Shown piece by piece: positions 2,308 through 19,733 of a stretch of 60,596 nt of DNA. Position 1 is the stretch's first letter, and each line of letters opens with the position of its first letter. The notes beneath the pieces were generated by a model. That model was not told where the DNA came from and made no database searches. It worked only from the letters and a program-made list of their open reading frames with translations. Origin of the DNA: a virus (taxonomy: Duplodnaviria; Caudoviricetes); IMG/VR virus record IMGVR_UViG_3300009183_000103, positions 1 to 60,596 of that record. One strand, written 5' to 3'. The translations under genes and the position numbers were made by a program.

Positions 2308-3272
2308 TGAAATACTTAGTTACAGGTGGTGCTGGATTTATAGGACACAATGTTGTTCGCCTCCTTGAACAACAAGGTCATGAATGTGTCGTCATTGATA
2401 CCTGCACTGACTATGGATTTATTCCCAAAGAAGAATTAACTTATCTAATAGATAATCGTCTTAAACGTATCAATACCCGAATAAGAAAGATTGATATACG
2501 TGAAGAGATCTTTGTGGATACTATATTCAAAACCTACGAGCCAGATGTTGTTATACATATGGCAAGTTTTCCTAGGCAAAAAGTGGTTGAACAGAATCCT
2601 AGACTAGCCAGTGATGTCATGTCCAATGGGTTGATTAATCTATTAGAAAAAAGCAAACGACATAAAGTTAAGAAGTTTGTGTATATTTCAAGTAGTATGG
2701 TCTATGGAGACTTTACCTCTGATGTATTAGAAGCGCATCCGTGTAAGCCACAAGGGCAATACGGCATCATGAAACTCATGGGTGAGAAACTTGTAGAAGA
2801 CTATTCACGTCAAGGTGCGTTTGATTATACTATCATCCGTCCAAGTGCTGTATATGGCGAGTGGGACGTAGAGGATCGTGTGGTTAGTAAGTTCATGACG
2901 ACTGCCATGCGTGGTGAAACACTAAAGGTAAAAGGTGCTGATGAAGTCCTAGACTTTACCTATGTAGAAGATACTGCTCAAGGCATAGTCTTAGCCGCAA
3001 CCAAAGATGTAGCAAATGGTAAAGTATACAATGTCACACGCAGTGATGAAACGCAATATACTCTCAAAGATGCCGCAGAACTTGCTATTAAGATAGCAGG
3101 TCGAGGTAGTTTAGAAATTGCAGATCGTGATCTAAGTTTCCCCAAGCGTGGCCGTTTAAGTATCATGCGAGCACAGCGTGATCTAGGATATAATCCTCAA
3201 GTAGGTGTAGAAGAAGGTTTTCAAAGGTATTATGACTGGTATTCCCAAAATCCCATTCTTTGGCGTAGATAG
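2307..3272 (+). CDS. NAD-dependent NDP-sugar epimerase/dehydratase (extended SDR)
   Basis: VTGGAGFIG Rossmann motif, SSSMVYG, YGIMK (YxxxK), DFTYVED. Confidence 0.93.
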   Translation: MKYLVTGGAGFIGHNVVRLLEQQGHECVVIDTCTDYGFIPKEELTYLIDNRLKRINTRIRKIDIREEIFVDTIFKTYEPDVVIHMASFPRQKVVEQNPRLASDVMSNGLINLLEKSKRHKVKKFVYISSSMVYGDFTSDVLEAHPCKPQGQYGIMKLMGEKLVEDYSRQGAFDYTIIRPSAVYGEWDVEDRVVSKFMTTAMRGETLKVKGADEVLDFTYVEDTAQGIVLAATKDVANGKVYNVTRSDETQYTLKDAAELAIKIAGRGSLEIADRDLSFPKRGRLSIMRAQRDLGYNPQVGVEEGFQRYYDWYSQNPILWRR

Positions 3273-4353
3273 ACAATATAACGATCTACGTGAAGAGATC
3301 TTAGACGTCACTGATCTAGTCTATGCCTCTGGCCAGGTGCTTGACGGTCCTAGAACTAAAATGTTTGAACAGGCTATCGCCAAGATGACTGAACGCAAGT
3401 ATGCTGTAGCAGTTGGTAGTGGCACCCAGGCTCTTATATTTGCTCTACACGCCTTAAATGATCATGTTAAATTAGACATAGACAAGTCCAATGTTTTAAT
3501 CCCTGGCCAAAGTTATGTCGCCACGGTTAATTCAGTATTAGAAGCTGGCTATGATCCTGTGTTCTGTGATGTAGATCCCATCAGTGGATTGATGGATCTT
3601 AATACTATCCCATTACATGCAAGTAAAATCAGTGCTATGATGTATGTTAATCTATTTGGCAACATACTTGACCAAGAACGTTTAATCACCTATCAAGAAA
3701 TATTTGCTGATGGCAAGATACCTGTTATTGAAGATGCCGCACAGAGCTTTGGTGCTTACTATCGCGGAGTACCCAGTGGTAAACTAGGTGACATCAGCAT
3801 CTTAAGTTTTGATCCTACTAAGAATTTAAACAACTATGGATCAGGTGGCATGGTTTTAACTGATAATCCAGACCATGCTGAAATGTTTCGCAGTTACCGT
3901 GATAATGGCAAGTCCTTAGCTCACAACGTCACCGGCACTAACAGCAAGATGTCAGAAGCAGACTGTGCGCAGATGTTGGTTAAGTTAAAATACTTTGACG
4001 ATTGGCAAAAGCGTAGAGCAGAAATTGCAGAATACTATACTACAGAATTAGATGGCTACGTAGAATTGATACCTATAGATCCAAACGTTGAACATGCATG
4101 GAGTAAATTCGTTGTACATCACCATAGTCGCAATGTATTAAATATTGACTTAGCTGATAAAGGTATTGAAACTAAAATAAATTATCCTATACCATTACAT
4201 CTGCATCCAGTGTCGTATGTTAATGCTGATGTGGGAATATTGGAAGGTGCTGAACAGTTTAGTCGCACTTGTTTGAGTTTACCCATCTATCCAGAACTAG
4301 AAGACTATGAAGTCGAATACATAGTTGATGCTATCAAACAGAGTATCTACTAG
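3232..4353 (+). CDS. DegT/DnrJ/EryC1/StrS-family PLP-dependent sugar aminotransferase
   Basis: SGTQAL, IEDAAQSFGA, SFDPTKNL (PLP lysine), LSLPIYP. Confidence 0.93.
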   Translation: MTGIPKIPFFGVDRQYNDLREEILDVTDLVYASGQVLDGPRTKMFEQAIAKMTERKYAVAVGSGTQALIFALHALNDHVKLDIDKSNVLIPGQSYVATVNSVLEAGYDPVFCDVDPISGLMDLNTIPLHASKISAMMYVNLFGNILDQERLITYQEIFADGKIPVIEDAAQSFGAYYRGVPSGKLGDISILSFDPTKNLNNYGSGGMVLTDNPDHAEMFRSYRDNGKSLAHNVTGTNSKMSEADCAQMLVKLKYFDDWQKRRAEIAEYYTTELDGYVELIPIDPNVEHAWSKFVVHHHSRNVLNIDLADKGIETKINYPIPLHLHPVSYVNADVGILEGAEQFSRTCLSLPIYPELEDYEVEYIVDAIKQSIY

Positions 4354-5635: not shown

Positions 5636-6069
5636 TATGGTAGCAACATATGGATTAAATCTGCCAAGGTCTCTGACCATTTGTCGCTGGCAAATTCATC
5701 TATCCTTATATCATATTCCTCTTCTGTAGGTTTTTGGAAAATAGCGTTAGTATCTTTGTATTCGCTTCTCCTAACTGTATCCATCCAAATAACCATATCC
5801 GCATCAAACACTTCACGTAGTTCACGTGTAGGACAAACGAAATCACAGATCATTATAAATCCAGCTTCAACTCCACGATCAGCGATAGCACGCATTCGTA
5901 CTGCTTGACGGCGGCGACCTTCTGAACTAAAGTCCCAATCATTGGTTTCTTTACGTAGATCATCAGCATTGGTCCACTCAGTATGATGATTCTTTAATAA
6001 TTCATCAAATAACTTTTGTGCTAGTGTAGTTTTTCCGCTACCCGGCAGTCCCATTATTAATATTTTCAT
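5635..6069 (-). CDS. Adenylylsulfate (APS) kinase-like P-loop kinase, short form
   Basis: GLPGSGKTT P-loop, NADDLR, DFSSEGRRRQ and DFVCP match the CysC layout; the RDPKGLY lid segment is absent. Confidence 0.75.
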   Translation of the reverse strand: MKILIMGLPGSGKTTLAQKLFDELLKNHHTEWTNADDLRKETNDWDFSSEGRRRQAVRMRAIADRGVEAGFIMICDFVCPTRELREVFDADMVIWMDTVRRSEYKDTNAIFQKPTEEEYDIRIDEFASDKWSETLADLIHMLLP

Positions 6070-6793
6070 AATTTTTATATTCTCGGTAAAAATCTTCCAT
6101 TACATCTCGATGCCACCATCCGCAGAAATGTTCATTATCTCGAGCTTTTAGATATGCTCCGGGATCGTGATCTTTTAAGGCTTGCTCCATGTCAATAGAC
6201 AATAGTTTAAAACTATATACTTTTTTTAATAATTCAACAATCGTTTTGTTTTTCATTTGATTATTGTAGATATCATTGTCTTCAAAATATAGTCTATATT
6301 CGGATTCATTCCACGGACCATTAAATTGAGTGCCGGTTTTATTTTGTCCATGATGATAGGTTTCAAATCTATACACACTAGGCCACAAAATTGCAACAAT
6401 TTTTGGTTTTAATATTGGTATTAAATTTACAGCCAGTCTGGTTACGGTATCTGCGCTGGCTCCACCTAAGCCGGCATTATAAACAACGTGATCATTAAAA
6501 TACGTTGCACCTAACTGTTCGGGCCAATTATCTTCTACAGGTATCCCAACTCCAACTGTATGACTACAACCCAATGTCAATAAAATTAGATTATCGGGAT
6601 GGATTTCAAACTCTCTACTTCTAAATCCTTGACTGTTATATTTGTAGCTTAAACTATGTTCTTCCCAATGGGGCGATGGATTTTTATTGTAATTTTCTTT
6701 AGTATCAGAGTCAGCCAAACTGAACCACATTTCTTGTCCGGGAGGATACGTTCCTACGTTTAACGAACAACCTAATTCCCAATAGTTCTTCAT
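6038..6793 (-). CDS. SGNH/GDSL-hydrolase-like protein
   Basis: LGCSHTVG block I, NAGLGGAS block II, C-terminal DNEH; NSQGFRS motif before block I. Confidence 0.7.
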   Translation of the reverse strand: MKNYWELGCSLNVGTYPPGQEMWFSLADSDTKENYNKNPSPHWEEHSLSYKYNSQGFRSREFEIHPDNLILLTLGCSHTVGVGIPVEDNWPEQLGATYFNDHVVYNAGLGGASADTVTRLAVNLIPILKPKIVAILWPSVYRFETYHHGQNKTGTQFNGPWNESEYRLYFEDNDIYNNQMKNKTIVELLKKVYSFKLLSIDMEQALKDHDPGAYLKARDNEHFCGWWHRDVMEDFYREYKNYENINNGTAG

Positions 6794-8256
6794 GACAACA
6801 CTCGAACTCCATATAACTTTTCAAAACGGTCAGCATCACTACGGTCATTGACCATGGGCTCACCACGGATATTTAGACTAGTATTTAACAGCATGGGACA
6901 ACCAGTCCACTCAAACCATGCTTCTAATAGTTGTCTTATTCCCGACCCATCAGCGGCAACAGTTTGTACACGAGATGTACGGTCAGCATGAATGATGGCA
7001 GGATAAAGATCAGGCTGCCGACAATAAGCGACTGTCTGCATATACCTGCTAGTAGGCCAACCACTAGGCATATCAAAATATTCCTTACATACCTCTTCCA
7101 AAATAACGGGTGCAAATGGCCTGAACTGTTGACGTTGTTTGATTGCATTTACTCTCTCCTTGATATCAGCACCACGTGGGTCTGCTAATAAACTACGATT
7201 GCCTAGTGCTCTAGGTCCAAATTCTGCACGGCCATTGGCGACTCCAACTATTTTATTAGTTAGTAATTCACTTATTAAATCTTTAACAGGATAGGGACCA
7301 GCTATGTCTGTACCTAGATAAGCATTCTGCCAGTTTAACTTACCGCCATAACTCAATGCCGCAGCACCTAGGCTACTACCACAATCACCAGGGTTAGGCA
7401 TGATCCAAATATTTTGAAAGTAAGCACCTATTAGGTCATTGGCTTTACAGTTTAGTGCCACTCCGCCCATGTAAACTAAGTTACCAGTCGTATCTAATTC
7501 TTCAGCACGTAGCATGATATGATGTAGGCATTGTTCTAATGTATATTGCGCACTGGCAGCTATCTCAAAGTCTGTCATACCAGGATGATATTCATCACAG
7601 CCAACATGTAGGTTTTGTTTAAATTGTAGATTATGTGCGTTAGCCAAGAAGTCGCCATACATATTTGCATCAAACTGAGCATAAGCAGCCATTCCCATTA
7701 AGATATATTCTTCATCTAAAGGTTTAAGTCCAGCACGTTTAGTCATAGCTGAATAAAATAAACCTAGACTATGTGGATACTTCTGGCTCCATAATTTTTT
7801 ATATACTGCACGGCCGTTAACGTATTCAGCTGACCAAATACTTGCTGTATCCCATTCGCCTATAGCATCAATAACAACTACTGTAGCACGATCATATGGG
7901 CTAGTTTGGAATCCTGCGGCTGCGTGACTTAAATGGTGACCATGATATTCGATGTCTGGTGGATTTTTATTTGGCCAAATTTTACGTATCTTGTCCTCAA
8001 TACTAGTATCAAACAAGTCTTTGTATTGTCCGGCATAGAGTTGACGTGTTTTCTTTAACCAAGGGCGTTCGTAATAGGCGATACGATCCGGTATGCCACA
8101 ATGTGCAAAACAATCGGCAAGAATCTCACGATTGAACTCACTGTCGTGTTTAACTTTACTATAACGTTCACTGTGCGCGGCAAACAAGATCTCACCATCA
8201 CAGATGAGACTTACGCCTGCATCATGGAAGCCGGACGATATTCCTAAGATATTCAT
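6790..8256 (-). CDS. O-carbamoyltransferase (NodU/CmcH/TobZ family)
   Basis: HDAG, SERYSKVKH, HHLSHAA, DAIGE, GGVALN, EFGPRALGNRS, FRPFAP, LLNTSLN. Confidence 0.95.
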   Translation of the reverse strand: MNILGISSGFHDAGVSLICDGEILFAAHSERYSKVKHDSEFNREILADCFAHCGIPDRIAYYERPWLKKTRQLYAGQYKDLFDTSIEDKIRKIWPNKNPPDIEYHGHHLSHAAAGFQTSPYDRATVVVIDAIGEWDTASIWSAEYVNGRAVYKKLWSQKYPHSLGLFYSAMTKRAGLKPLDEEYILMGMAAYAQFDANMYGDFLANAHNLQFKQNLHVGCDEYHPGMTDFEIAASAQYTLEQCLHHIMLRAEELDTTGNLVYMGGVALNCKANDLIGAYFQNIWIMPNPGDCGSSLGAAALSYGGKLNWQNAYLGTDIAGPYPVKDLISELLTNKIVGVANGRAEFGPRALGNRSLLADPRGADIKERVNAIKQRQQFRPFAPVILEEVCKEYFDMPSGWPTSRYMQTVAYCRQPDLYPAIIHADRTSRVQTVAADGSGIRQLLEAWFEWTGCPMLLNTSLNIRGEPMVNDRSDADRFEKLYGVRVLS

Positions 8257-8983
8257 ATATTATTTTTTCTGCTTCAATGTGTGCTTCTTCTAATGGATGT
8301 GTTGTTCCTATAGGAAAACCTTTTTCTTTTGCCCACTCATAAAATCCTAAATTAGTAGGAAACCATAACCATCTTTCACGATCAAATTGATTTAATAATG
8401 TAGTTAATGTGTTATCATTTTTAAAATGGTCGACATTGGTCAGACCATGGTCAACACTAGTAAACAAATAAGGTATATTTTTTAACTGTAAATATTGCTG
8501 TAACATAATAATTTCGCAAAGACTATTGTAAAGTTCCCAATATTCAAATGTACCCACGTAGTGATAAAATACTTTAGCAAACTGCCTAATTCCTTTTTCT
8601 TTTTCTTCTTTTAACTTACTAACATGCCAATCAAATACAACAGGATTGTCCACTGCAAATTCTTTTTTGATATCGTTAACGTTGTCTACAATAGACCACG
8701 CACTTATTTGCTCCCACGTTTCATCAAATTTAAATTCGTATCTACTCAAAAAACTCCAAGTAACTAGCACTAATCCAATTTCTTCTTTAGTTTGTTCGCA
8801 GACCGTCATTACAGTCCTACGTATAGCGTTATTACTATATCCCGGTTGTGCCGCACAATGGTAAGACATTCCCAAATGATTGGCCAATAATGCTGCATAA
8901 CTAGATTTACTATATTCAGTATAGCCATCAGCTAGCTCACTACCATAGGTAAAACTATCGCCGCCGGCGATTAACTTACCCAA
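8222..8983 (-). CDS. SGNH/GDSL-like protein
   Basis: GGDSFTYG, PGYSN, C-terminal HPLEEAH; probable TTG start at 8983 after GGAGA. Confidence 0.7.
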   Translation of the reverse strand: MGKLIAGGDSFTYGSELADGYTEYSKSSYAALLANHLGMSYHCAAQPGYSNNAIRRTVMTVCEQTKEEIGLVLVTWSFLSRYEFKFDETWEQISAWSIVDNVNDIKKEFAVDNPVVFDWHVSKLKEEKEKGIRQFAKVFYHYVGTFEYWELYNSLCEIIMLQQYLQLKNIPYLFTSVDHGLTNVDHFKNDNTLTTLLNQFDRERWLWFPTNLGFYEWAKEKGFPIGTTHPLEEAHIEAEKIIYEYLRNIVRLP

Positions 8984-9615
8984 GATAATTTCTCCATATG
9001 CCCATAAATTTTTTCTGCTACCTTTATATGTCCTTCTTCTAAAAAATGCCCCCGATCTCCTACCGGACATTGATAAGCCCATTCCATCATAGTATCAACA
9101 GGCCAACCTACATAAAATCTACCATCAATTTGATCTAATAAATCTTTGTTAACATTAGCGGTGCGGTTATTGACCTGATGATTACCAAAACTATCTAGCA
9201 TCAAATAAGGTTTATTATTTGCTTTAAAAAAGTTTTGTATAAGAATGATGTTTAGCAAGTATTGTCTATATAGGTAATCATCGTTGTGATGACGACTAAA
9301 ATATTCTATTACTTCCCAGCGCCATGGACTGTATTGTTTATGTGGCAATGTTCCACCGCCTGGCCATAGGTCATAAAATCCATTTTCATCTGCCATTTCG
9401 ATACGTGCAAAGTGACTCCATGCTATAATGGCCATATCGTAGTTGTTAATTTGCTCTACGCAATGTCTGACCATGCGTGTATTACCACTACCCGGTTTAG
9501 CTAGGTTAATGACTTCATATCCTATTTTTTTACCCAAAACAAAAGGCCAAGCGTTGTTTAAATCGCTTAGTTCTTCCCCATAGGTAAAGCTATCCCCAAC
9601 CGATAATAAACGCAT
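8971..9615 (-). CDS. SGNH/GDSL-like protein
   Basis: VGDSFTYG, NLAKPGSGN, DRGHFLEEGH. Confidence 0.78.
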   Translation of the reverse strand: MRLLSVGDSFTYGEELSDLNNAWPFVLGKKIGYEVINLAKPGSGNTRMVRHCVEQINNYDMAIIAWSHFARIEMADENGFYDLWPGGGTLPHKQYSPWRWEVIEYFSRHHNDDYLYRQYLLNIILIQNFFKANNKPYLMLDSFGNHQVNNRTANVNKDLLDQIDGRFYVGWPVDTMMEWAYQCPVGDRGHFLEEGHIKVAEKIYGHMEKLSWVS

Positions 9616-9716
9616 TATTTGTAGATAAAAGGATCTCTTTTACGTAGTTCTTTTAATTTCTTGCGGTAAGCTATTTCTAGTTTGATTCGATTATATAGAT
9701 TTCTTAACCAACTCAT
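9615..9716 (-). CDS. 33-aa basic peptide ending in DPFIYK (not in the ORF track)
   Basis: MSWLRNLYNRIKLEIAYRKKLKELRKRDPFIYK; strong RBS TAAGGAGAAATTCA-ATG; its TAA overlaps the next ATG (TAATG). Confidence 0.85.
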   Translation of the reverse strand: MSWLRNLYNRIKLEIAYRKKLKELRKRDPFIYK

Positions 9717-10245
9717 TGAATTTCTCCTTAATTAATTCTGCGGCTTCTACATGTGCATCTTCCAAAGGATGTCCATCAGTGCCTATACTATACTTATTTT
9801 CCACAGCCCATTGATAAAATCCTCTTGGTCGCTGGGTATCATATGATTCTGTACCAGCCGGAAATAAGTACCAATGGTCCCAGTTAGTTTTAGGATCTAA
9901 TAGATCTATTAGACAATTATCCACACAGGTAAACAGATAAGGGACCTGATGATATTCACAATATTGTTGGAATTCTAATATAACCTTAGGACTAGTATAA
10001 ATTGTATCTCTAGTAGGCCATGTCCAACAAACAACTACTGCTTTTGAGCCACCTTTATGTAACTCTTCTCTAGCACGCCGAGCTATTTCATAATTGCTAA
10101 TGCCAGGATAAGCAACACAGATATAGTTATTACCTGATAACAATGCAGGAAAGGTGTTGCGGCTATACCCATCGATACCCCCATGTGGGCTATCCTGTAG
10201 CTCACTACCCCAAATCATACTATCACCCGCGGCTACTATAGTCAT
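9691..10245 (-). CDS. SGNH/GDSL-like protein
   Basis: AGDSMIWGSEL, PGISN, GFYQWA...GHPLEDAH; paralogue of 8222-8983. Confidence 0.7.
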   Translation of the reverse strand: MTIVAAGDSMIWGSELQDSPHGGIDGYSRNTFPALLSGNNYICVAYPGISNYEIARRAREELHKGGSKAVVVCWTWPTRDTIYTSPKVILEFQQYCEYHQVPYLFTCVDNCLIDLLDPKTNWDHWYLFPAGTESYDTQRPRGFYQWAVENKYSIGTDGHPLEDAHVEAAELIKEKFNELVKKSI

Positions 10246-11323
10246 AACCTGGTTTCATTATATCTATTTGCATCTGTTTATAGTTAGAATCACTCCAACA
10301 GTAATCAAATATATTTTTTATTCCATCGATTTCTATGCTATAAATGTCCAAATGATTACTTAGTATGTCCCATATCTTTTGATATTCTGTAGTTTCAAAA
10401 CTACGTTGTAAATCGACTTGCCCTATCGCAAGATATCCCAGGCTTAATTTAGAATCTTGTGGGTCTCGACCGTTGGACTTTAACCAACGTTTGAAACGTT
10501 CTTGCTCTTCATTGTGCCAAGAATTTTCACCACCAAGCACAACATCGTTGGCCCATTCTATATCAAATTCACCGCTATAATATTGCAATTCAGTAATCGC
10601 TTCACAAACGGTATCTGTTAATTCTGGTGCATTTTCATCTCGAAAAACTTCAAATAATGTTTTGCCTATTTGTGTCCAATGCATATAAACTCCACCAAAC
10701 TTTCGATCATATCCATTAATAATAAATCCCTGGCGATGTTCATCAATGAGATCATATCGAGTAGTATTCAGAAATGTAGTGATTTGGCTAGGACGCACCC
10801 AATAAGGATCATTTACTAGTTTCCTTTGACTCAATATGAGATTTTCCATTTCATGACAAATAGTGTTTAATTCACGTATAGCATATTTGGTTTCGTAGTC
10901 AGCACGCTTATAATAGTCGCTAAGATTCCATACAGTGCCCTGTAGACGTTCAAAATGATTATGTAGTTTGTTTAGCAATCCATGATTAGGCCCATTTTCT
11001 GCATAGTCAGTAGCCACTGTATTTTCTGGAGTAAAATATTCTTCGATTTGATAATCTGGGAAGAATGCATTTATAGTTGCTATGGCTTGATTAACTTGGT
11101 CACATAGATAAGGTAGTGTGCGAGCAGTCTTAGGAAACCCCATAAAACAGAAATTCTTTTCTAATAGATTACCAGACTGTAACAAAATTGTTAATGCCTG
11201 TATCCAGTCTTGTGCTAATTTAGTATCGTTAGGTATAATATAGTAATCTATTAAATCATTATGATCTAAGGGATTACGTAATGTTACTTTAACAGTTGAT
11301 TGATTGATACCACTCAAAAGCAT
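10223..11323 (-). CDS. Hypothetical protein with His/Glu motifs (possible metalloenzyme)
   Basis: 366-aa ORF with AAGGA RBS; motifs LNKLHNHFE, LNTICHEME, YMHWTQIGKT. Confidence 0.75.
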   Translation of the reverse strand: MLLSGINQSTVKVTLRNPLDHNDLIDYYIIPNDTKLAQDWIQALTILLQSGNLLEKNFCFMGFPKTARTLPYLCDQVNQAIATINAFFPDYQIEEYFTPENTVATDYAENGPNHGLLNKLHNHFERLQGTVWNLSDYYKRADYETKYAIRELNTICHEMENLILSQRKLVNDPYWVRPSQITTFLNTTRYDLIDEHRQGFIINGYDRKFGGVYMHWTQIGKTLFEVFRDENAPELTDTVCEAITELQYYSGEFDIEWANDVVLGGENSWHNEEQERFKRWLKSNGRDPQDSKLSLGYLAIGQVDLQRSFETTEYQKIWDILSNHLDIYSIEIDGIKNIFDYCWSDSNYKQMQIDIMKPGYDYSSRG

Positions 11324-12629
11324 CTTTCCTTTGTAATAGAATGTCAGCCAAAGTTAGCTTGTCTCGGCGGATACTCTCTAATTGTAGCATACGAGCTTTA
11401 CCTTTTGCAAGAGATGCTTGCCAAGTATCGGGATATTGTTCTTGAAAGGTTGGGCGTTGTTTCAGCTGGATCAGTATGTCCTTTAGCGAGCTATTTTGCA
11501 GGCATCCTGCAGGGTCTTGGCTAACCAGTAATTCATCTATCCAAGGATCTAAGATCTCTCGGGGTAGGGCCAAGGGCGACATAATAATGTCAGGACTAAA
11601 ACTAAAGACTACTTTGGCAAGTATGTCCACGCCCAATTCTGTAGCTAACTTCTCGATGTTACGAAGTTCAAACATACCCGGTAGGGTAAGTGTAAAGTCT
11701 ATTCTTGCTTGTCTACGGTGAGTAGAGACGCGAATAACTTCCTGAAAGTTTGCAAGCCACGCTTCATAGTCAAGACCTGTTCGGATATACTCTCCAATTG
11801 CTCCCGTACCGTCGAGGCTTGCACAGATTTGCCAGTCACGTAACCTAGCCAAAATATCAGTGCAGAGATTGATGCCGCGATAATTGATGCGACTAAGATT
11901 AGTATTGTATCTAGCGTAAACATTTGGTCCATCTCCCAGTTCAACAATGCGGTGCATATATCGCCAATGTTGTTCGTACATCAGTGGCTCTCCGCCTACC
12001 CAATATACTTCCTCGATTCGATGTTCCTCTACTGCGGTAGCGAACTCTTGCTCAATTTGTGAGCTCTGGAACTTTTCAATTTCGCTTTTAACGTCTGGGC
12101 GCATCCAATTATTCTTTGGATCACTCCAGTTGATCATGTCATGTTGTCTCTGTTCAGTTTCCCACGCACTAGACAACATGTCACCACACATACGACACTT
12201 AAAGTTACATAGATTACTAAAGCGATAATCCCAACTTACAGGCCGCATAGTTGTATTTCCCTCTGCGTCTGTTGTGTCCCATATACTCAAATACTTATGA
12301 TTAAACAGTTGATCAAAATAACTACGGTAAACGGAAGTATTTAAAAGTTTGTCGTTACATACTTCGCACTCAGGTAATACTTCACCAGCCATCATACGAC
12401 GACGCACACTTTTCATGTGATCGCTGTTCCAATGTTCCTCTAAGGTAATAGGGATATATTTCCCAGTACCATCACTGGTGTCAATGTACTGCTTAAAGTT
12501 CTGCGCTGGCTCACGGCTAGCACAGCACATACGGCGTTCAGTCTGTGGACTAACATAGGTATGTACCCATGGTGCTAAACATAATGTCGCTGGTTTATTC
12601 AAAATATGATTTCCACTCTGGTACCACAT
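11289..12629 (-). CDS. Radical SAM protein with N-terminal SPASM/twitch-like domain
   Basis: CNFKCRMC, GGEP, YNTN; N-terminal CLAPW...MCC...CEVC; alternative TTG start at 12602. Confidence 0.9.
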   Translation of the reverse strand: MWYQSGNHILNKPATLCLAPWVHTYVSPQTERRMCCASREPAQNFKQYIDTSDGTGKYIPITLEEHWNSDHMKSVRRRMMAGEVLPECEVCNDKLLNTSVYRSYFDQLFNHKYLSIWDTTDAEGNTTMRPVSWDYRFSNLCNFKCRMCGDMLSSAWETEQRQHDMINWSDPKNNWMRPDVKSEIEKFQSSQIEQEFATAVEEHRIEEVYWVGGEPLMYEQHWRYMHRIVELGDGPNVYARYNTNLSRINYRGINLCTDILARLRDWQICASLDGTGAIGEYIRTGLDYEAWLANFQEVIRVSTHRRQARIDFTLTLPGMFELRNIEKLATELGVDILAKVVFSFSPDIIMSPLALPREILDPWIDELLVSQDPAGCLQNSSLKDILIQLKQRPTFQEQYPDTWQASLAKGKARMLQLESIRRDKLTLADILLQRKDAFEWYQSINC

Positions 12630-13794
12630 CTACTAATTTCTGTTTGCTTACTAAATCTTCTATTCTAATCTGTTCAATGAATTTAGGCAGCAATGATGTG
12701 TCATATTTGGTGATAACTAGTATATCTATTACTTGATCAAGTAATTTAATATAACGTTCATTGGTGTAATTATTTTTAGACCATTGAAGTTTTTCTATTA
12801 GAGGAGTTTTAAGTTCAGGTGGGATAATAGATACTGATAAATTTTTATTTCGTTCGTATACCAAACTAATAATAATGCGATCCATGTTATGTTTATGCAC
12901 CCATGCAACAAATTGATCAAAACTAAAAACATTAACGGCAGTTAATACATAATTAACCACACACCCAAATTCTTGTTGTAGCTGGATAGCATTAGCTTCA
13001 ACATCCTGCCATATCGCACCTCGACGTTGATATTCAATAACTTCGCCTGTTCCATCAATGCTTAATGTATAAAACACATTTTTAAATTGTTTAAATTTTT
13101 CCTGTAATGCTTTGGGATATTTACTAACATTAGTTAATAAACTAATAGTAATATTCTTAGCAAAATCCTGTTCTATTAGACGATCTATTAATTCATGAAC
13201 TTGTTTCTGTAATAACGTCTCGCCACCAGTAAAATTTAATATTTCTACATATTTTAATATGTCATAAAAATCATCGGCAATAGTATTGTCAAATTTTCTA
13301 TTCAATTTAGCATTAAAGAATTTAATTTCAAACGTTCCGCGTTTTGAACTTGCACCTGAAAAACACATAATGCACTCATAATTACAATAGTTACTAGGGC
13401 AAAAATCTAAACTCAATATATGATCAATTTTATAATCATTGTCAATAATTGATTGTACGTGTTCTACAATATCTGTAGTTATATGTTCTACAAAATAATA
13501 ATTATTAAGTTGTCTTGGACTAGATCCGCCATTTTTTTCTGCTAAACTACAAGTTTTGCAGAATTCACTAGTATGACAGCTACCTTGAATAAAATTCTTT
13601 CTAAGATCTTGCCATTGCTGACTATTCATTGATTCTAAAATAGATTGATCATGTACCTGCCACCCATCTACTTTAATTGAACTACACGGCATAACCGTTG
13701 ATGAAGGACCAACTAAAGAATAAAATCCTGCGGTAAATGGGAAAAGGCAGATATTACTGCCAAATTCATTATAAATTTTATCTAAATTATTCAT
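12595..13794 (-). CDS. Radical SAM protein with N-terminal SPASM/twitch-like domain (AT-rich, divergent)
   Basis: CNYECIMC, GGET, LTN, SIDG; N-terminal CLFPF...PCS...CKTC. Confidence 0.87.
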   Translation of the reverse strand: MNNLDKIYNEFGSNICLFPFTAGFYSLVGPSSTVMPCSSIKVDGWQVHDQSILESMNSQQWQDLRKNFIQGSCHTSEFCKTCSLAEKNGGSSPRQLNNYYFVEHITTDIVEHVQSIIDNDYKIDHILSLDFCPSNYCNYECIMCFSGASSKRGTFEIKFFNAKLNRKFDNTIADDFYDILKYVEILNFTGGETLLQKQVHELIDRLIEQDFAKNITISLLTNVSKYPKALQEKFKQFKNVFYTLSIDGTGEVIEYQRRGAIWQDVEANAIQLQQEFGCVVNYVLTAVNVFSFDQFVAWVHKHNMDRIIISLVYERNKNLSVSIIPPELKTPLIEKLQWSKNNYTNERYIKLLDQVIDILVITKYDTSLLPKFIEQIRIEDLVSKQKLVDVVPEWKSYFE

Positions 13795-14998
13795 ATCCCA
13801 TGGCCTTGGCTATTTCTAGATGAGTGTCTACAAAACTTTGTTCTCGATATTGATCAGTAGTTTTCATTTTACTTAAAAACTCGTGCCCATCACTGCCCTG
13901 ACCATTCTTAATAAATTGCACAATCCGTAAGATTTCTGCACAATATTTAGGATGAAATTTGTGATGTTCTAAACGATCAATTACTAGTTCCCGTGCAGCT
14001 GGTGTCATACTACTGATACACATGTGCCATGGATCATGTAACATATTAAAGTAGACGTGATCAAATATTTGATCCTGTATCCAATCACATATTTCTGGCA
14101 GATAATAGACATTTTGTATGTTTACTGTCAGACACAACTGAGTAGAGAATTTGGCGTCACGCAGTTCAGTAAACTGTTTTAGATTACGGTTAACTTCTTC
14201 CCAATTGGCGCCATAGCGTTCATATTCAAATCGCGGACCTGTATTGTCTATACTAAATGCTACTTCGACGTGTTTAAAATGACTCCACAGTCTGTAACCA
14301 TCTGGCAAGACTGTGCCGTTGGTATTATAGTGTATTTCAATATTCTTACTGTAGTTGTTATCAACAGCGTAACGTAGTAGTTCAAAGTGTTGTTCTATTA
14401 AAAATGGTTCGCCGCCAGTAAATTCAAAATACCTAATGTTGGGCAATAGAATTTTTAAATTCTCCCAAAACTGAGGATTCTCTCTTGGCCACGCACCATC
14501 TTGCAAGAATTTGTAAGCCAGGTGTTCTTTACGATTTTCTAAACTAGGTACATAGTCTATTTCTTCTTTAGCCCATTTGCTACTTGACCAACTACCGCAT
14601 ATACGACATTTTAGATTACAGATATTTCCTAACTTAAGATCAATAAACCAAAGTTGATTAGGATCAAGATCATCAAATTTGATGTCGTCAACATATTCTT
14701 TTAAGCGTATGCGACTATTCATACGCTTGCTAACGCGGCCGGCAGCTTCTTCATCCCAGCAGCGTTGACAAGTAGCTGGTTTTTGACCATACAAAAAATC
14801 TCTGCGTAGAATCTGCATATAACGACTATGATAAATTTCTTCTAAGGTGTGTGTTTTAAGATTATATTTGCGTTCGTATCCTTGTTCATCAAAGTAAGTA
14901 ATCTCATCTTTGGCGAGACAGCAAGGACGTGCTGTCCCTACTGGACTAGTTTCGATACTGATCCAAGGCAGTATACAGATTTTATCTGATAATGGCAT
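13787..14998 (-). CDS. Radical SAM protein with N-terminal SPASM/twitch-like domain
   Basis: CNLKCRIC, GGEP, YNTNG; N-terminal CILPW...PCC...CQRC. Confidence 0.92.
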   Translation of the reverse strand: MPLSDKICILPWISIETSPVGTARPCCLAKDEITYFDEQGYERKYNLKTHTLEEIYHSRYMQILRRDFLYGQKPATCQRCWDEEAAGRVSKRMNSRIRLKEYVDDIKFDDLDPNQLWFIDLKLGNICNLKCRICGSWSSSKWAKEEIDYVPSLENRKEHLAYKFLQDGAWPRENPQFWENLKILLPNIRYFEFTGGEPFLIEQHFELLRYAVDNNYSKNIEIHYNTNGTVLPDGYRLWSHFKHVEVAFSIDNTGPRFEYERYGANWEEVNRNLKQFTELRDAKFSTQLCLTVNIQNVYYLPEICDWIQDQIFDHVYFNMLHDPWHMCISSMTPAARELVIDRLEHHKFHPKYCAEILRIVQFIKNGQGSDGHEFLSKMKTTDQYREQSFVDTHLEIAKAMGYE

Positions 14999-16335
14999 TA
15001 TTTCTTAGCCCATTTATCATAGCAGAAGTTACGCAACTCGACATATTCAGGAAATACATCCTCAAACTTTTCCTGACGAGATACATCTAACTTATCATTT
15101 ACTGAGAAAAATTCATGCAATAGCCAATCTTTATTATCTGAATCCATATAACTTAAGATACTTTCATATCCAACAATAGCACGAGTTAGCGGATCATGGG
15201 GTCTCAACCATTCGATGTGTGCTAGGATTTTTTCGCGAACCTGTTGTTTATATATTTCTGGTAGCACATCTATGCGTTCTCTATCAGGACCTTGAAGTAT
15301 ATTAATATTCCAATCTTGAGCTTTGATTAATCCGCGTTCGACCCAATCACGATGAAAATCCATAACGTGCAGGACATTGTAAATACTAACTGTCGAGCTA
15401 ACATAAAAATCTACATCAGGGCAGATCTCTAGCATCTTTTCACGATTACGAACAATCTGATCCCAATCGGTTCCTTTACGTATGTATTCTGCACGAGCTC
15501 CCATAGCATCTAAACTGGCTCCGATACTAATATTTTTAAATAATCGCCAATAGTCTAAAACATTTTCATCCTTAAGAGTCAGTCGACTGAAGTTTGTATT
15601 ATATATTAATCTAACATCAAACATTTTACGTGCAGCTAATTCTTTTAATATACGATAATGCTCCTCCATTATCAATGGTTCGCCACCAGCAAAGTAAATT
15701 TGTTCTAAGTATGGGATATGTTCTTGCATTTGATTCCACATGTCATCTTTATCTTTGCCTGCATACATAAACTGAGGATGATCGCGTGGGCCAAACAATT
15801 CCACTTCTTCATTGTACCAACTGCTGCTAAACCATCCACCACAGGTGCGACAACTCATATTACATAAATTTGTAAAACGTATATCATAATATCTTATTTT
15901 AAAATCATCAAATTGACCGTCGGCAGATGTTTGATCTACAAGATTGATGTGATGCCCAAAGTTTTTGTTGCTATCATTTCGCATGCTGACAAATCCGTGT
16001 TGTTCACGTTCGTAACATTTAGTGCATTCTCGACATTCTACTTCATTTATCATGTTAATACGCATTTGTTTATATTCGGGGCTATTCCAAACTTCTCGCA
16101 TATTGTTATTGTGTAGATTTCCTAGCGGGTAATGACTGTCACTTAAACAACAAGGATATGCTTGGCCATTAGGAAAGGCATGCAGATGAATCCATGGCAA
16201 TATACAAAATACTTTACTTTCAGTTAGTCGATGCATCTGCTCTTGATTGAGAGTACCCTTTTCAACATAGATAGGTTGATTATCTGTATAATTATGATTT
16301 TTATAATATTCTTCTTTTTGTTTATCTCTACTCAT
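14998..16335 (-). CDS. Radical SAM protein with N-terminal SPASM/twitch-like domain
   Basis: CNMSCRTC, GGEP, YNTN; N-terminal CILPW...PCC...CTKC. Confidence 0.92.
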   Translation of the reverse strand: MSRDKQKEEYYKNHNYTDNQPIYVEKGTLNQEQMHRLTESKVFCILPWIHLHAFPNGQAYPCCLSDSHYPLGNLHNNNMREVWNSPEYKQMRINMINEVECRECTKCYEREQHGFVSMRNDSNKNFGHHINLVDQTSADGQFDDFKIRYYDIRFTNLCNMSCRTCGGWFSSSWYNEEVELFGPRDHPQFMYAGKDKDDMWNQMQEHIPYLEQIYFAGGEPLIMEEHYRILKELAARKMFDVRLIYNTNFSRLTLKDENVLDYWRLFKNISIGASLDAMGARAEYIRKGTDWDQIVRNREKMLEICPDVDFYVSSTVSIYNVLHVMDFHRDWVERGLIKAQDWNINILQGPDRERIDVLPEIYKQQVREKILAHIEWLRPHDPLTRAIVGYESILSYMDSDNKDWLLHEFFSVNDKLDVSRQEKFEDVFPEYVELRNFCYDKWAKK

Positions 16336-16997
16336 AGTTTATATCGTTCCAATATTTGTTTTACAACTATCTCATGTTCTTGTCTGTTAGGGTGTCTACA
16401 TTCACTTACCCACGGGCTAATAGTATCTATTCTAATATCAACTCCGCTGATTATATCTGACCAACTGGTTTCAATTAATTTTATATTATTTAATTGGCAA
16501 TATGCTCTGACTACATCTATTAATAGACCCCTTTTCTTTCTATATTCAGCATCATCAAATTTATAAGTCAATAACATTTGATATAAGTTAAATACCGTAT
16601 CAATATTATCTTCTGAGTCTGCACAAATACAAGGTTCAGATAATGTCCATGTTCCGACATTTTTGAAATGTGCAAAGGGGTTGGTTAAATCTGTTGTAGT
16701 AGCACACCAATTTGGTATAAATTGCCACGTGCGACCTTCATTGGTCCACACTTCCCTGACAGGGCTAGTCCATCCTACTATGACAGCAGTAATATTTTTA
16801 TATTTAGGTATTTCCTCTATCATTTTATAAAAAATGTTTTCATTGCTATTTCCAGGAAAAGCAAAGTTAACACATTCAACGCCTAATTGTTTTGCTATTA
16901 AATTAGGATAACTTAATTCAAGGTTTTTAATGGTAGCTTGATCACTTGCTAATCCCACACCGTGGGTGACACTACACCCAAACGCCAATATTGTCAT
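16332..16997 (-). CDS. SGNH/GDSL-like protein
   Basis: FGCSVTHG, NFAFPGNSN, HPNRQEH. Confidence 0.72.
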   Translation of the reverse strand: MTILAFGCSVTHGVGLASDQATIKNLELSYPNLIAKQLGVECVNFAFPGNSNENIFYKMIEEIPKYKNITAVIVGWTSPVREVWTNEGRTWQFIPNWCATTTDLTNPFAHFKNVGTWTLSEPCICADSEDNIDTVFNLYQMLLTYKFDDAEYRKKRGLLIDVVRAYCQLNNIKLIETSWSDIISGVDIRIDTISPWVSECRHPNRQEHEIVVKQILERYKL

Positions 16998-18358
16998 AAT
17001 GTATTATACCATTCGGCTAGTTGTGGGAATGTATGTCTAAAGTCTTTACCACGGCGTTGATCATATTGTTCATAAAAGTTCTTAAAGTCACGTTGCAGGA
17101 TACTGTTTGTCATAGCACCGCTGTGTGGGCTGACAACTTCTTTCAAATAACTAACTAATCTACCAATTTGGTTAATTTCAAACTCGTGTAATACATCTAC
17201 ACTAAGATCACCAAGCGGAATTAATTGTCTAATACATTCTTCACGCACCTCTAAAGGTAATATCAATGGGCTTTGAAAACTAGGAAAGCGTAGAATATTT
17301 AGACTAAAGTTAATCGCATCTTTGCCATATTTCTTCTTAAGTTCAACAATACTCCACAGGAACTCTGGTAGACTTATCAAGCATAGTGCGTTTATGGTAC
17401 ACATGACATGTAGGCCACGCAGTTTACCACTAGCCAATAAGTAAGAAAGATTGCTAGTCCATTGATCCCAATCCAGGCCATCACGAATATATATTGCGTG
17501 TTGACCAATGCTTTCGTTGCTTGTATACAGATCCAATTTAATACCTTCTGTGGCATCTAATAACCTTTCTAATTTATCTTGTTCAAATCCTAGGTTGCTG
17601 TTTATAGCAAGCCGTGTTTTACTCTCGCCTCGGTGATCTTTGAACCATTCGATGAGCCGCCAGGTGTATCCTGACATAAGTGGCTCTCCTCCTGTGATCC
17701 GTAGTTCCTTAAGCGTTTTGTGTAGGTCTGATTCCCACCATTTGAAGAAGGCTTCAACGTATGGATTAACGTCAGTGATAGTATAAAGTTGGCTACTGTC
17801 ATGAGTGTGAGTAAAATGATTGCGACCGTCGGAAACCAGATTGGTATATGGTCCATTACGATGAATGTCACGAACCCAAGTAGTGCTGAAAGCAGGATTG
17901 CAATAGCTGCAAGCAAACTGACAAGTGCGATCGAAAGCAATTTCCAAGGTTTGTAGGTTAACGTCTTGTTCTGGTGGAGTATTGAAAGCTTCATCTAGGT
18001 CTTTATCCTCATAAATTACTGTTTTATAAACACGGTCACTGATAATTTCATCAGACGCATCTTCTCTGTCTGCCATATCCTCAATCTTCCAGCAGTATTC
18101 ACACCCGCTTGGCCTTAGGCCATCTTGCATCAATGCACGATCATTTTTCTTTTCACGTGTATTGTGTAATGCTCGAGGATTTGCTATTACCTGTTCTACA
18201 CTTACCTGATGTGGTAATGGGTGGTGACAACTGGTAGTCTGCCCACTGCCTAACCATATGGTAGCGTTATACCATTTGGCACCGCAGAAGCTTGTTGACT
18301 TAATGTCAATCACTCTGCGTTTGTATCCTAAATCGGTTTCGTTATGGAGTTTCGGCAT
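16994..18358 (-). CDS. Radical SAM protein with N-terminal Cys/His auxiliary domain
   Basis: CQFACSYC, GGEP; N-terminal CGAKW...SCHH...CEYC. Confidence 0.92.
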   Translation of the reverse strand: MPKLHNETDLGYKRRVIDIKSTSFCGAKWYNATIWLGSGQTTSCHHPLPHQVSVEQVIANPRALHNTREKKNDRALMQDGLRPSGCEYCWKIEDMADREDASDEIISDRVYKTVIYEDKDLDEAFNTPPEQDVNLQTLEIAFDRTCQFACSYCNPAFSTTWVRDIHRNGPYTNLVSDGRNHFTHTHDSSQLYTITDVNPYVEAFFKWWESDLHKTLKELRITGGEPLMSGYTWRLIEWFKDHRGESKTRLAINSNLGFEQDKLERLLDATEGIKLDLYTSNESIGQHAIYIRDGLDWDQWTSNLSYLLASGKLRGLHVMCTINALCLISLPEFLWSIVELKKKYGKDAINFSLNILRFPSFQSPLILPLEVREECIRQLIPLGDLSVDVLHEFEINQIGRLVSYLKEVVSPHSGAMTNSILQRDFKNFYEQYDQRRGKDFRHTFPQLAEWYNTL

Positions 18359-19733
18359 GCCACTTACACTCCTGCCAAAACTCTTTCATTTGCGGGAAGG
18401 TTTGTTCAAAACTTAAACCTCGACGTTGATCATATTCATGGAAGAAACGATAAAAGTCAGCACGTGTGTCATGTAGATACTTCTCACTTAACTTTTTGCC
18501 TTTTTTCATCCAATCAATATCTCGATGTAAACGTTGGATTTCATAATCTTTAAATCCATCATAGCGACCGCTGCCTTCTTCTAAGCGATGTAATTCCATC
18601 CATTTAGCAACATTTTCTAAAATGCGTACATAACTTTCTGGAAGTATCTGTAGACTTTGCCAACTTGGCGTTCTCAACACAGGAGTATCAAACCAAACAC
18701 GTTGATAGGTAGTACTGTATAACTTACGCAACTCTAAGATGTGTTCTAATAGACGTTGTAGTCCCAAGATACTAAGATTATTCATTGTGATGATATAGGT
18801 CAAGCTATTACGATTAGGCACTTCAGTTAGGTAACGATGTACATAGGCTTGATTGCGTTGGAATTCTAATCCATCGCGGATATATTCAGCATGTTCAGCG
18901 ATGCCTGTATCTAAACTTACATACTGCATGAAGTGTTCTATCTTAGTACCTGTACATAAGTCTTTAACTTTAGCAATATATTTTACAAACAAGTCTTCTG
19001 GGACGCTAAAATTACTTGTAACGTCAACGTGTAAATCGCTCTTAGGTGCAGCCAGAATATAATCAAATACACGATGCGTATTCTTATCCATAAGAGGTTC
19101 GCCACCCGTCATACGGAAGTGTTTAAGACTACCATATAGCTCAGGCCACCAACGCCAGAATGCTTCTACATAGGGATTGTTCTCACGCACAGGAATAGGT
19201 TGGCGGCGGCCTTTGAAATGCATGGGATCGTTGTGTGGACTCTTTGTAGGATATGCTCCCCAACGGTCAATATCCTTGCCCCATTCAGTTGAAAACTGCG
19301 GGCTACAATAACTACATGCTAGATTACACCCATGACTAAAGTTTACTTCAACATAACTTGGAGTAACATCTGCGTCCCATGGTAGATCTTTGATTTCATC
19401 GTAATGACTAGCGGCCCAAGGCTCGCCACTACGATAATGGCGATCACTTAAATGTCCAGCATCTTCCATATTCCAGCAATAGTTACATTCTTTAGGACGC
19501 TCGCTGTTGAGCATCTTTTTACGTTGTTCTTTCTTATATGCTGTGTTATGTAAGGCACTAGGGTGAAACTCCAATGGGTGTACATCAATCTCATGCAATG
19601 GAGGATGGTAACAACTGTTATTAAGTCCTGTTGGTAAGTGTAGGCTTACCTGTTGCCATTTGGCTAGACATAATGCAGGACCTAACTTGTCTTTCATCTC
19701 CTCTGCCGCTGTCATAAATGTACTTTTACTCAC
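18342..19733 (-). CDS. Radical SAM protein with N-terminal Cys/His auxiliary domain
   Basis: CNLACSYC, GGEP; N-terminal CLAKW...SCYH...CNYC. Confidence 0.92.
   Translation of the reverse strand: MSKSTFMTAAEEMKDKLGPALCLAKWQQVSLHLPTGLNNSCYHPPLHEIDVHPLEFHPSALHNTAYKKEQRKKMLNSERPKECNYCWNMEDAGHLSDRHYRSGEPWAASHYDEIKDLPWDADVTPSYVEVNFSHGCNLACSYCSPQFSTEWGKDIDRWGAYPTKSPHNDPMHFKGRRQPIPVRENNPYVEAFWRWWPELYGSLKHFRMTGGEPLMDKNTHRVFDYILAAPKSDLHVDVTSNFSVPEDLFVKYIAKVKDLCTGTKIEHFMQYVSLDTGIAEHAEYIRDGLEFQRNQAYVHRYLTEVPNRNSLTYIITMNNLSILGLQRLLEHILELRKLYSTTYQRVWFDTPVLRTPSWQSLQILPESYVRILENVAKWMELHRLEEGSGRYDGFKDYEIQRLHRDIDWMKKGKKLSEKYLHDTRADFYRFFHEYDQRRGLSFEQTFPQMKEFWQECKWHAETP

Follow-up and report, generated by a model that had tools for sequence, protein, structure and literature searches.

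A phage microprotein family linked to carbamoyltransferase genes, and a possible tyrosine relay shared with SxtK/DUF5989

Does the 33-codon open reading frame (ORF) at 9615..9716 of a viral contig encode a protein and, if so, what might that protein do beside a carbamoyltransferase (CT)? The contig is the IMG/VR viral record IMGVR_UViG_3300009183_000103, whose full length of 60,596 nt we call the window; CheckV estimates its completeness at 17%, which makes it part of a very large phage genome. The original prediction, made from the letters alone, saw in this ORF a soluble analogue of SxtK, the tiny DUF5989 protein that accompanies the saxitoxin carbamoyltransferase SxtI, with a Lys/Arg stretch in place of the transmembrane helix, and cast it as an accessory subunit of the CT within an SxtI/SxtK/SxtL/SxtO-like module. 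We find that the ORF belongs to a widespread phage microprotein family which, as far as gene content and order can tell, is genetically bound to a clade of CTs, a broader association than that first reading could see, and that the peptide very probably works together with the CT. As to how, the best reading, which we hold tentatively, is that of a soluble carbamoyl-shuttle microprotein.

The product of the ORF, MSWLRNLYNRIKLEIAYRKKLKELRKRDPFIYK, is basic (11 K/R against 3 D/E; net charge +8) and ends in the invariant tail DPFIYK, which contains Tyr32. The near-perfect ribosome-binding site (TAAGGAG) and the TAATG junction on which the prediction had leaned are both in place; the former falls within the 3' end of the upstream gene 9691..10245, and the latter probably couples translation of the peptide to that of the next gene, 8971..9615. 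These two signals, together with an overlap between the first 26 nt of the peptide gene and the 3' end of the upstream ORF, fit a translated gene. Eight related viral contigs, picked via the neighbouring 8971..9615 protein (64-84% identity), all carry the same small ORF at the same position (8/8 syntenic relatives); AAGGAG is retained in each of them, with the leading T replaced by C in L006, and the last 17 residues are identical, many silent changes notwithstanding. By Nei-Gojobori counting of the window peptide against 27 distinct 33-aa homologues, the proportions of synonymous (pS) and non-synonymous (pN) differences are 0.73 and 0.16 for the whole ORF, and 0.84 and 0.17 for codons 10-25, which lie outside both the upstream gene overlap and the eight codons fixed by the search pattern; over these same codons the two closest relatives show 8-10 synonymous and 0 non-synonymous differences. 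This pattern of substitution argues that 9615..9716 is a real gene under purifying selection, as had been supposed. Freshwater and lake metagenomes are among the sequencing runs that contain parts of this stretch. One 175-nt contig from one metatranscriptome run (X24, 6 differences) spans 9568-9665; its source is a relative, possibly as carried-over DNA, and we rejected it as proof of expression. In two freshwater metagenome runs, contig depth over the peptide gene (9618-9818 of the window) is 10-30x that of the surroundings (27 and 100.7 against ~3), with many loose contig ends at 9617 and 9662, and this segment is near letter-for-letter identical in many co-occurring phages with divergent flanks.

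The gene is far from singular. A degenerate DNA pattern for KRDPFIYK retrieved at least 119 viral loci, and in 119/119 of the matches listed it closes a small ORF or stops one to two residues short of its last codon. A profile of 68 members, for which 8000 candidates were scored, matched at least 7247 database clusters at 90% identity (E<=0.01), which adds a very large group to the phage microproteome. Most of these peptides are 33-51 aa long from the first ATG, with a median net charge of +9, a variable N-terminus and conservation that sits in the C-terminal 17 residues, ending ...KELRKRDPFIY(K). The predicted lack of a membrane helix was borne out by a hydrophobic-run scan of 112 peptides, which found no transmembrane stretch in the window peptide or in the family generally; in most peptides, stretches free of charged or strongly polar residues extend to 4-6 at the longest, and only in two do they reach 13. 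Among the matches listed, none of 120 clusters carries a Pfam domain, and their sole name is 'hypothetical protein' (JGI). PHROGs holds no family for the peptide, Pfam returned nothing relevant for the five members tested, the ESM Atlas placed only its own unnamed clusters near it and no named one, and a literature search found no paper with the motif in this sense.

In cellular genomes, a sample of 401 from a single bacterial class, the family profile matched 0/401; the positive control, a 342-kb viral record, yielded its single copy. Neither blastn with the region nor tblastn with the SGNH protein and two peptides matched any GenBank phage, in a search whose low-complexity filter may hide a basic peptide; the profile drew a blank in the complete records of HTVC008M, P-RSM4 and Xanthomonas phage XacN1, and a motif scan of four GenBank phage CT loci found nothing. 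One weak profile match (E 0.002), a divergent member ending KSDPYIYEE, lies directly upstream of the CT of the unannotated marine virus MH319727.1. Judged by these searches, the family appears to be very large, without a Pfam or PHROG model, and found in viral sequence so far. Longer forms number 51, against the at least 7247 stand-alone proteins; they are mostly singletons on short contigs with varied partners, and all except the two fusions to a CT end described below are probably read-through or gene-calling artefacts. The peptide gene is present in tandem double copies in L260 and in P0001 and P0002, where both copies read as one ORF. A 72-aa ORF in L064 carries a Cys-rich N-terminal extension (~ten Cys) ahead of a KKRDPFIYK tail and adjoins an S-adenosylmethionine (AdoMet)-decarboxylase-like gene, with no CT in the locus. 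In L082 and L084, again with no CT, peptides ending DPFIYKNH precede giant proteins of 1049 and 1652 aa with cytidylyltransferase-like domains, to which the L084 giant adds HD and poly(A)-polymerase-head domains.

The association with CT genes was examined in both directions. The forward set comprised 127 loci searched by tblastn with window proteins, 8 of them chosen via the SGNH neighbour and so biased to the window layout. Of these, 85 extend at least 1.5 kb downstream, and 77 of the 85 contain a CT, within 2 kb downstream in 74: it is directly adjacent in 44, mostly through an ATGA overlap, follows after 60-2000 nt on the peptide strand in 30, and is elsewhere in the locus in 3. Pfam verified the CTs of this set; L018 and L053 are among the loci without a CT, and their downstream proteins proved not to be CT-like. 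In most loci the peptide gene's stop and the start that follows overlap (offsets -4, -1 and 0), usually as ATGA (offset -4), versus TAATG in the window. The gene upstream of the peptide varies, and includes T4-type primase, radical SAM, DUF6071, 2-oxoglutarate oxygenase and aldolase-like genes, among others. Where at least 6 kb of sequence lies on each side of the peptide (44 loci), 42 loci have a CT, 25 have radical SAM homologues and 11 have SGNH homologues. For the reverse set we took the best 80 of 582 viral CT loci by CT alignment, ignoring the peptide, with some contigs common to the forward set; in 74/80 the profile matches a peptide on the CT strand no more than 3 kb upstream, and of the six misses one is without any upstream DNA. 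These motif-blind matches end in KRDPFIYK in 64/75 cases, and retain DPFIY in 73/75 and PF.Y in 75/75, so that both the co-occurrence with CT and the conservation of PFIY on which the prediction had staked itself were upheld.

The window CT, which lies two genes downstream of the peptide gene as predicted and has both Carbam_trans domains, is of the TobZ/NodU/NovN type, with a Kae1-like N (transfer) domain and a YrdC-like C domain. Its nearest solved structures are those of NovN (9s2t, 3e-53), GdmN and TobZ (3ven, 6e-41), over a range of 3e-53 to 1e-40, and it is <32% identical to the 'Nol-like' CTs of listed cultured cyano- and pelagiphages, HTVC008M and P-RSM4 among them. When the 73 loci that extend at least 3 kb downstream are divided, 53 have a full-length CT, 13 the Kae1-like N domain only and 7 neither, and on this division the constant partner of the peptide is the N domain. 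The N-only loci (L010, L011, L013, L017, L021, L025, L029, L032, L034, L039, L056, L073 and L081) encode a protein of ~315 aa. In P0136 and P0171 a complete Carbam_trans_C end continues in frame into the peptide, and in L040 the peptide gene lies downstream of a 545-aa CT. Complex predictions from CT and peptide alignments scored 0.04 and 0.16, under the mark of 0.32, which tells neither for nor against binding; we propose that the two are in physical contact.

In T4-like loci (L010, L022, L029, L035, L044, L052, L073 and L083) the order is primase (Toprim), peptide, CT and DnaB-like helicase. The peptide marks a phage CT clade, which in these contigs sits between primase and helicase. Such a site is odd for a sugar-type O-carbamoyltransferase, and the substrate there might be a nucleotide or DNA. 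A DUF2061 membrane protein of 74-81 aa lies between peptide and CT in L011, L023, L034 and L039 (T4-like), and in P0132 the peptide is fused to a DUF2061 membrane protein.

The bacterial side of the comparison with SxtK was drawn from at least 120 bacterial loci found by the pattern APFIYTLF followed by a stop. The background to the prediction, that DUF5989 proteins end in this way and keep company with CT and GDSL proteins, proved sound: sampled proteins of this set are PF19451 at E about 1e-26 (controls 51-92 bits), and of the 61 loci flanked by at least 3 kb on each side, 56 have a CT homologue within 4 kb, always on the same strand, upstream of DUF5989 in 39/56 and directly downstream in 17/56. 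The gene between CT and DUF5989 was SxtJ in 10/10 tested, and 20 loci scanned in full contained SxtJ in 16 and GDSL/SGNH proteins in 5. Twelve of 12 divergent members found by hidden Markov model (HMM) rather than by motif keep the Tyr and the final Phe (e.g., PFVYAVF). DUF5989 is also found within larger proteins, namely a 521-aa Planctomycetota fusion of GDSL/AlgX-like and membrane segments with DUF5989 (L143:2809-4371, minus strand) and a 193-aa bacterial membrane protein that ends in it (L176:2252-2830, plus strand). Two reports of 2009-2010 describe sxtJ and sxtK as short ORFs next to sxtI, of unknown function and assumed to act with it (PMC2679770, PMC2885083), and a literature search found no paper mentioning DUF5989.

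The phage peptide and DUF5989 share a size class (the bacterial microprotein has ~50 aa), a C-terminal P-F-I-Y with invariant Pro and Tyr, an amphipathic N-terminal start followed by R/K-K-K, same-strand Carbam_trans linkage (77/85 for the phage family, 56/61 for DUF5989) and recurrent GDSL/SGNH neighbours. They differ in that the phage peptide has a basic, probably helical stretch where DUF5989 has a transmembrane helix, in their tails (...FIYK versus ...FIYTLF), and in their distribution: PF19451 lies above its cut-off in 72/401 genomes of the sampled bacterial class, against 0/401 for the phage type, and a DUF5989-type tail occurs in only 3 viral contigs. On this balance the peptide may be regarded as a soluble counterpart of SxtK/DUF5989 beside the same enzyme, rather than as a demonstrable member of that family.

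A biochemical precedent for an invariant C-terminal Tyr comes from a different acyl system. In Anderson et al. (J Biol Chem 2025, PMC12148441), FXYXXF is a conserved six-residue 'acyl shuttle' motif at the C-terminus of the microprotein DltX and of PatA (FIYANF in NgPatA) and other MBOAT proteins, whose invariant Tyr is acylated and passes the acyl group to the catalytic Ser of an SGNH protein (DltD, PatB), which in turn modifies the polymer. The C-terminus of DUF5989, FIYTLF, is an exact fit to this motif, and the phage peptides retain F-I-Y and mostly end one residue later (F-I-Y-K). As in DltX and PatA, the invariant Tyr sits in a microprotein or at a protein's end, within an 'FIY' identical to that of NgPatA. 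SGNH proteins may serve as partners in some loci: besides the window, 19 loci have an SGNH-like gene (by the criterion of a GDS/GCS start) directly after the peptide gene, and 8/8 T4-like loci have none within 6 kb. The two systems part in that acetyl or D-alanyl there comes from an MBOAT protein, absent here, and is moved outside the membrane, whereas here a cytoplasmic TobZ-type CT and carbamoyl would be involved, and in that most phage peptides are missing the final XF. For carbamoyl itself there is a parallel in HypF, whose architecture is the same YrdC-like plus Kae1-like arrangement as that of the CT. HypF is reported to carbamoylate the C-terminal Cys of HypE (PMC12130793), so that in this instance too carbamoyl is received by a partner protein on a conserved residue at its very end; HypE differs in being a 330-aa enzyme with a Cys thiol acceptor (PRIC motif), whose product is cyanide for hydrogenase, and in having no sequence likeness to the peptide. 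A literature search found no paper linking DUF5989, SxtK or carbamoyltransferases with DltX or FXYXXF.

It is the fit of DUF5989 to FXYXXF, the FIY tail, the SGNH neighbours and the HypF/HypE precedent which lead us to prefer a shuttle. We take the peptide to be soluble, strongly basic and probably helical, with the invariant tail D-P-F-I-Y-(K) as its working part. The CT would make carbamoyl-AMP in its YrdC-like domain, transfer carbamoyl in its Kae1-like domain, and load it onto the hydroxyl of Tyr32 in the flexible tail. The carbamoyl-tyrosine would then be passed on, in the window most likely to the catalytic Ser of the cytoplasmic SGNH proteins which flank the peptide gene, and these could place the carbamoyl on a final acceptor, probably a sugar of the surrounding glycan/nucleotide-sugar pathway. 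This would make the peptide a viral and soluble counterpart to SxtK/DUF5989, which in bacteria is a membrane microprotein; loading of the tyrosine, hand-over to SGNH proteins and equivalence to SxtK are each proposed by analogy with the systems above. A more general form of this proposal, which we advance with slightly more hesitation, is that carbamoyl may be relayed through a microprotein Tyr as acetyl and D-alanyl are in Pat and Dlt systems. Bacterial CT-SxtJ-SxtK(-GDSL) sets would then be transmembrane O-carbamoylation machines, with SxtK in the place of DltX and SxtJ as membrane conduit, and phages would possess a stripped-down soluble version composed of the CT and the FIY-tail peptide, to which cytoplasmic SGNH transferases may or may not be added.

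A number of results weigh against the shuttle, or against the SxtK equivalence on which it draws. The comparison with DUF5989 by profile, which the prediction had itself proposed, came out against it: the PF19451 HMM (27-bit cut-off) gave no match at E<=10 for the window peptide and four other members, nor in a six-frame search of the window, and the phage profile had no match in five DUF5989-carrying genomes. Alignment of the two families by hhalign covered five motif columns only, at a probability of 40%, and is circular in that both sets were selected by motif. A DUF5989 N-terminal HMM scored phage N-termini at a mean of -1.3 against -3.4 for shuffles, on sequences that are not independent, with 18% of peptides above the 95th percentile of shuffles; we rejected this likeness, barely above shuffles, as a claim of homology. 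The tail of the window peptide, F-I-Y-K and then a stop, is an incomplete FXYXXF, and the full motif occurs in 3/119 pattern-chosen and 0/75 CT-chosen loci, and also in P0171, its phage forms being FIYKSF, FIYKNF and FNYKNF. The DltX HMM PF12459, which matched nine controls including those of B. subtilis and L. lactis (two of the nine above cut-off), found no match in the window at E<=10, and in five DUF5989-carrying genomes gave noise matches elsewhere only, not at the DUF5989 genes. Partners are also missing where a relay would want them. No SGNH gene lies within 6 kb in 8/8 T4-like loci, and an SGNH family scored above the Pfam cut-off in 0/5 T4-like records, themselves fragments 19-56% complete; the predicted fold of the 8971..9615 protein is generic, and nothing in it separates a transferase from an esterase. 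The 13/73 N-only loci are without the YrdC-like domain that would activate carbamoyl, none having been found in the available downstream DNA, and tblastn found no CT in 8/85 loci, where the neighbours are a giant cytidylyltransferase- or poly(A)-polymerase-like protein, radical SAM or GDSL proteins, or unknowns. We also know of no described O-carbamoyl-tyrosine intermediate.

Some of these results sit more easily with a non-covalent accessory or regulatory subunit, the role cast for the peptide in the original prediction, whose tail would bind the Kae1-like domain and which would stabilise, activate, localise or gate the CT and never carry carbamoyl. The two-way gene linkage is equally explained by such a subunit, to which the natural CT-peptide fusions in P0136 and P0171 and the Kae1-like N domain as shared partner (of 73 loci, 53 full-length and 13 N-only) also lend themselves, and no SGNH gene is needed, which fits the T4-like loci. 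Left unexplained would be the invariant terminal Tyr, the match of DUF5989 to FXYXXF and the recurrent SGNH neighbours; we regard this alternative as somewhat unlikely when taken alone, and nearly as likely as the shuttle. If the peptide were instead a small basic protein independent of the CT, for example one that binds nucleic acid or membranes and is simply carried along with the CT gene as part of a variable island, then its charge (+8, family median +9), the 8/85 loci with varied neighbours and no CT, and its place within the replication module of T4-like contigs, between primase and helicase, would all be accommodated. Such a history is improbable given that the two-way linkage persists among phage types that otherwise have wholly different neighbours, and that bacterial DUF5989, with the same tail, is separately linked to CTs.

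The concentration of conservation in the C-terminal 17 residues, with a variable N-terminus, a stop that overlaps the next start in most loci and a position upstream of the CT in 74/85 loci, is also what might be expected of a cis-acting leader, in which the nascent chain (its last ~17 residues) or its translation would control the next gene through the stop/start overlap. Gene order is not fixed, however, which makes a leader decidedly improbable: the next gene differs (CT in 44 loci, SGNH-like in ~19, DUF2061 and others), the peptide is not always directly upstream, coming after the CT in L040 and being fused to the CT C-terminus in P0136 and P0171, it occurs in the tandem copies noted above for L260, P0001 and P0002, and DUF5989 lies downstream of its CT in 39/56 loci. 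The prediction had raised as its own alternative an aromatic-rich substrate peptide for radical SAM enzymes, here a precursor resembling those of RiPPs (peptides that are made on the ribosome and modified after translation) for the six radical SAM/SPASM enzymes at 11289-19733. The tail does contain aromatic residues, and many radical SAM genes lie within 8 kb in the window and its closest relatives, but of the 44 loci flanked by at least 6 kb on each side only 25 have radical SAM genes and 42 have a CT, T4-like loci have none beside the peptide, and the peptide gene is directly beside one only in L087, L028 and L066. On these co-occurrence counts we give a radical SAM substrate hardly any weight.

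If the shuttle is correct, then a Tyr relay would extend the acyl-shuttle principle from acetyl and D-alanyl to carbamoyl, and from a membrane to a cytoplasmic system. It would likewise suggest a function for thousands of unannotated phage microproteins, and for SxtJ and SxtK, whose function is given as unknown in PMC2679770 and PMC2885083. The peptide and SxtK/DUF5989 run in parallel and point to a testable tyrosine-relay mechanism for both. As the phage peptide is a few dozen residues long, soluble and synthesizable, with the same tail and the same enzyme as SxtK, the question can be put to it directly.

The features of the window on which this account draws are collected in the table below.

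Features of the window around the microprotein gene, by position (CT, carbamoyltransferase)
Feature	Position	Strand	Basis
DegT aminotransferase	3232-4353		Pfam
APS-kinase-like P-loop kinase, 144 aa	5635..6069	-	Pfam APS_kinase, 1.4e-11
SGNH-like gene, 251 aa, GCS motif	6038..6793	-	Directly after the CT gene; homologues follow CT in L001-L004 and L006
CT, 488 aa	6790..8256	-	Carbam_trans_N, 1.2e-35 (124 bits); Carbam_trans_C, 2.5e-47 (161 bits)
Second SGNH/DUF6071-like gene	8222..9082	-	DUF6071, 1.4e-04, 22 bits, below the 27-bit cut-off
SGNH/DUF6071 protein, 214 aa	8971..9615	-	Pfam DUF6071, 3.1e-07, 30.7 bits, passes the 27-bit cut-off
TAATG stop/start overlap	9613..9617	-	Stop TAA at 9615-9617 and next ATG at 9613-9615, one common base
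Microprotein gene, 33 aa	9615..9716	-	ATG start, 33 codons, MSWLRNLYNRIKLEIAYRKKLKELRKRDPFIYK
Upstream SGNH-like gene, 184 aa, starts MTIVAAGDS	9691..10245	-	N-terminal GDS; resembles the 8222..9082 protein by tblastn (related loci)
Shine-Dalgarno-like TAAGGAG	9724..9730	-	7 nt ahead of the ATG (9714-9716)
Six tandem radical SAM genes, 399-463 aa	11289-19733	-	Pfam

The peptide gene of the window is flanked by SGNH-type genes on both sides and coupled to one of them. Its predicted setting among SGNH genes holds in part: both 8971..9615 and 8222..9082 have DUF6071/GDSL as their Pfam matches, but only the former passes the cut-off, and 9691..10245 has no Pfam match at E<=1, as 6038..6793 has no Pfam match either. 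The 8971..9615 protein has its GDS motif at residues 7-9 and no signal peptide, and its AlphaFold2 model (pLDDT 90) has a TesA-like SGNH fold (TM about 0.57). The SGNH proteins of the window all begin with a GDS/GCS block, which indicates that none carries a signal peptide. The listed start of 8222..9082 overlaps the preceding gene by 112 nt, so that its true start is probably later. Of the proposed SxtI/K/L/O-like module, CT, SGNH and APS-kinase-like genes are present in the window, but the module is not a constant unit, in that SGNH homologues accompany the peptide in 11/44 loci and T4-like loci have peptide and CT only; SxtJ (PF19588) has no match in the window at E<=10.

Among the six radical SAM genes sits a further SGNH-like gene (16332-16997). 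In four of the six radical SAM proteins a SPASM-like Cys-rich part (Pfam) precedes the radical SAM core instead of trailing it, and homologues of these genes recur in jumbo-type relatives. Farther along, 31935-45497 (minus strand) is a single ORF of 4520 aa amid structural and tail-fibre-like genes.

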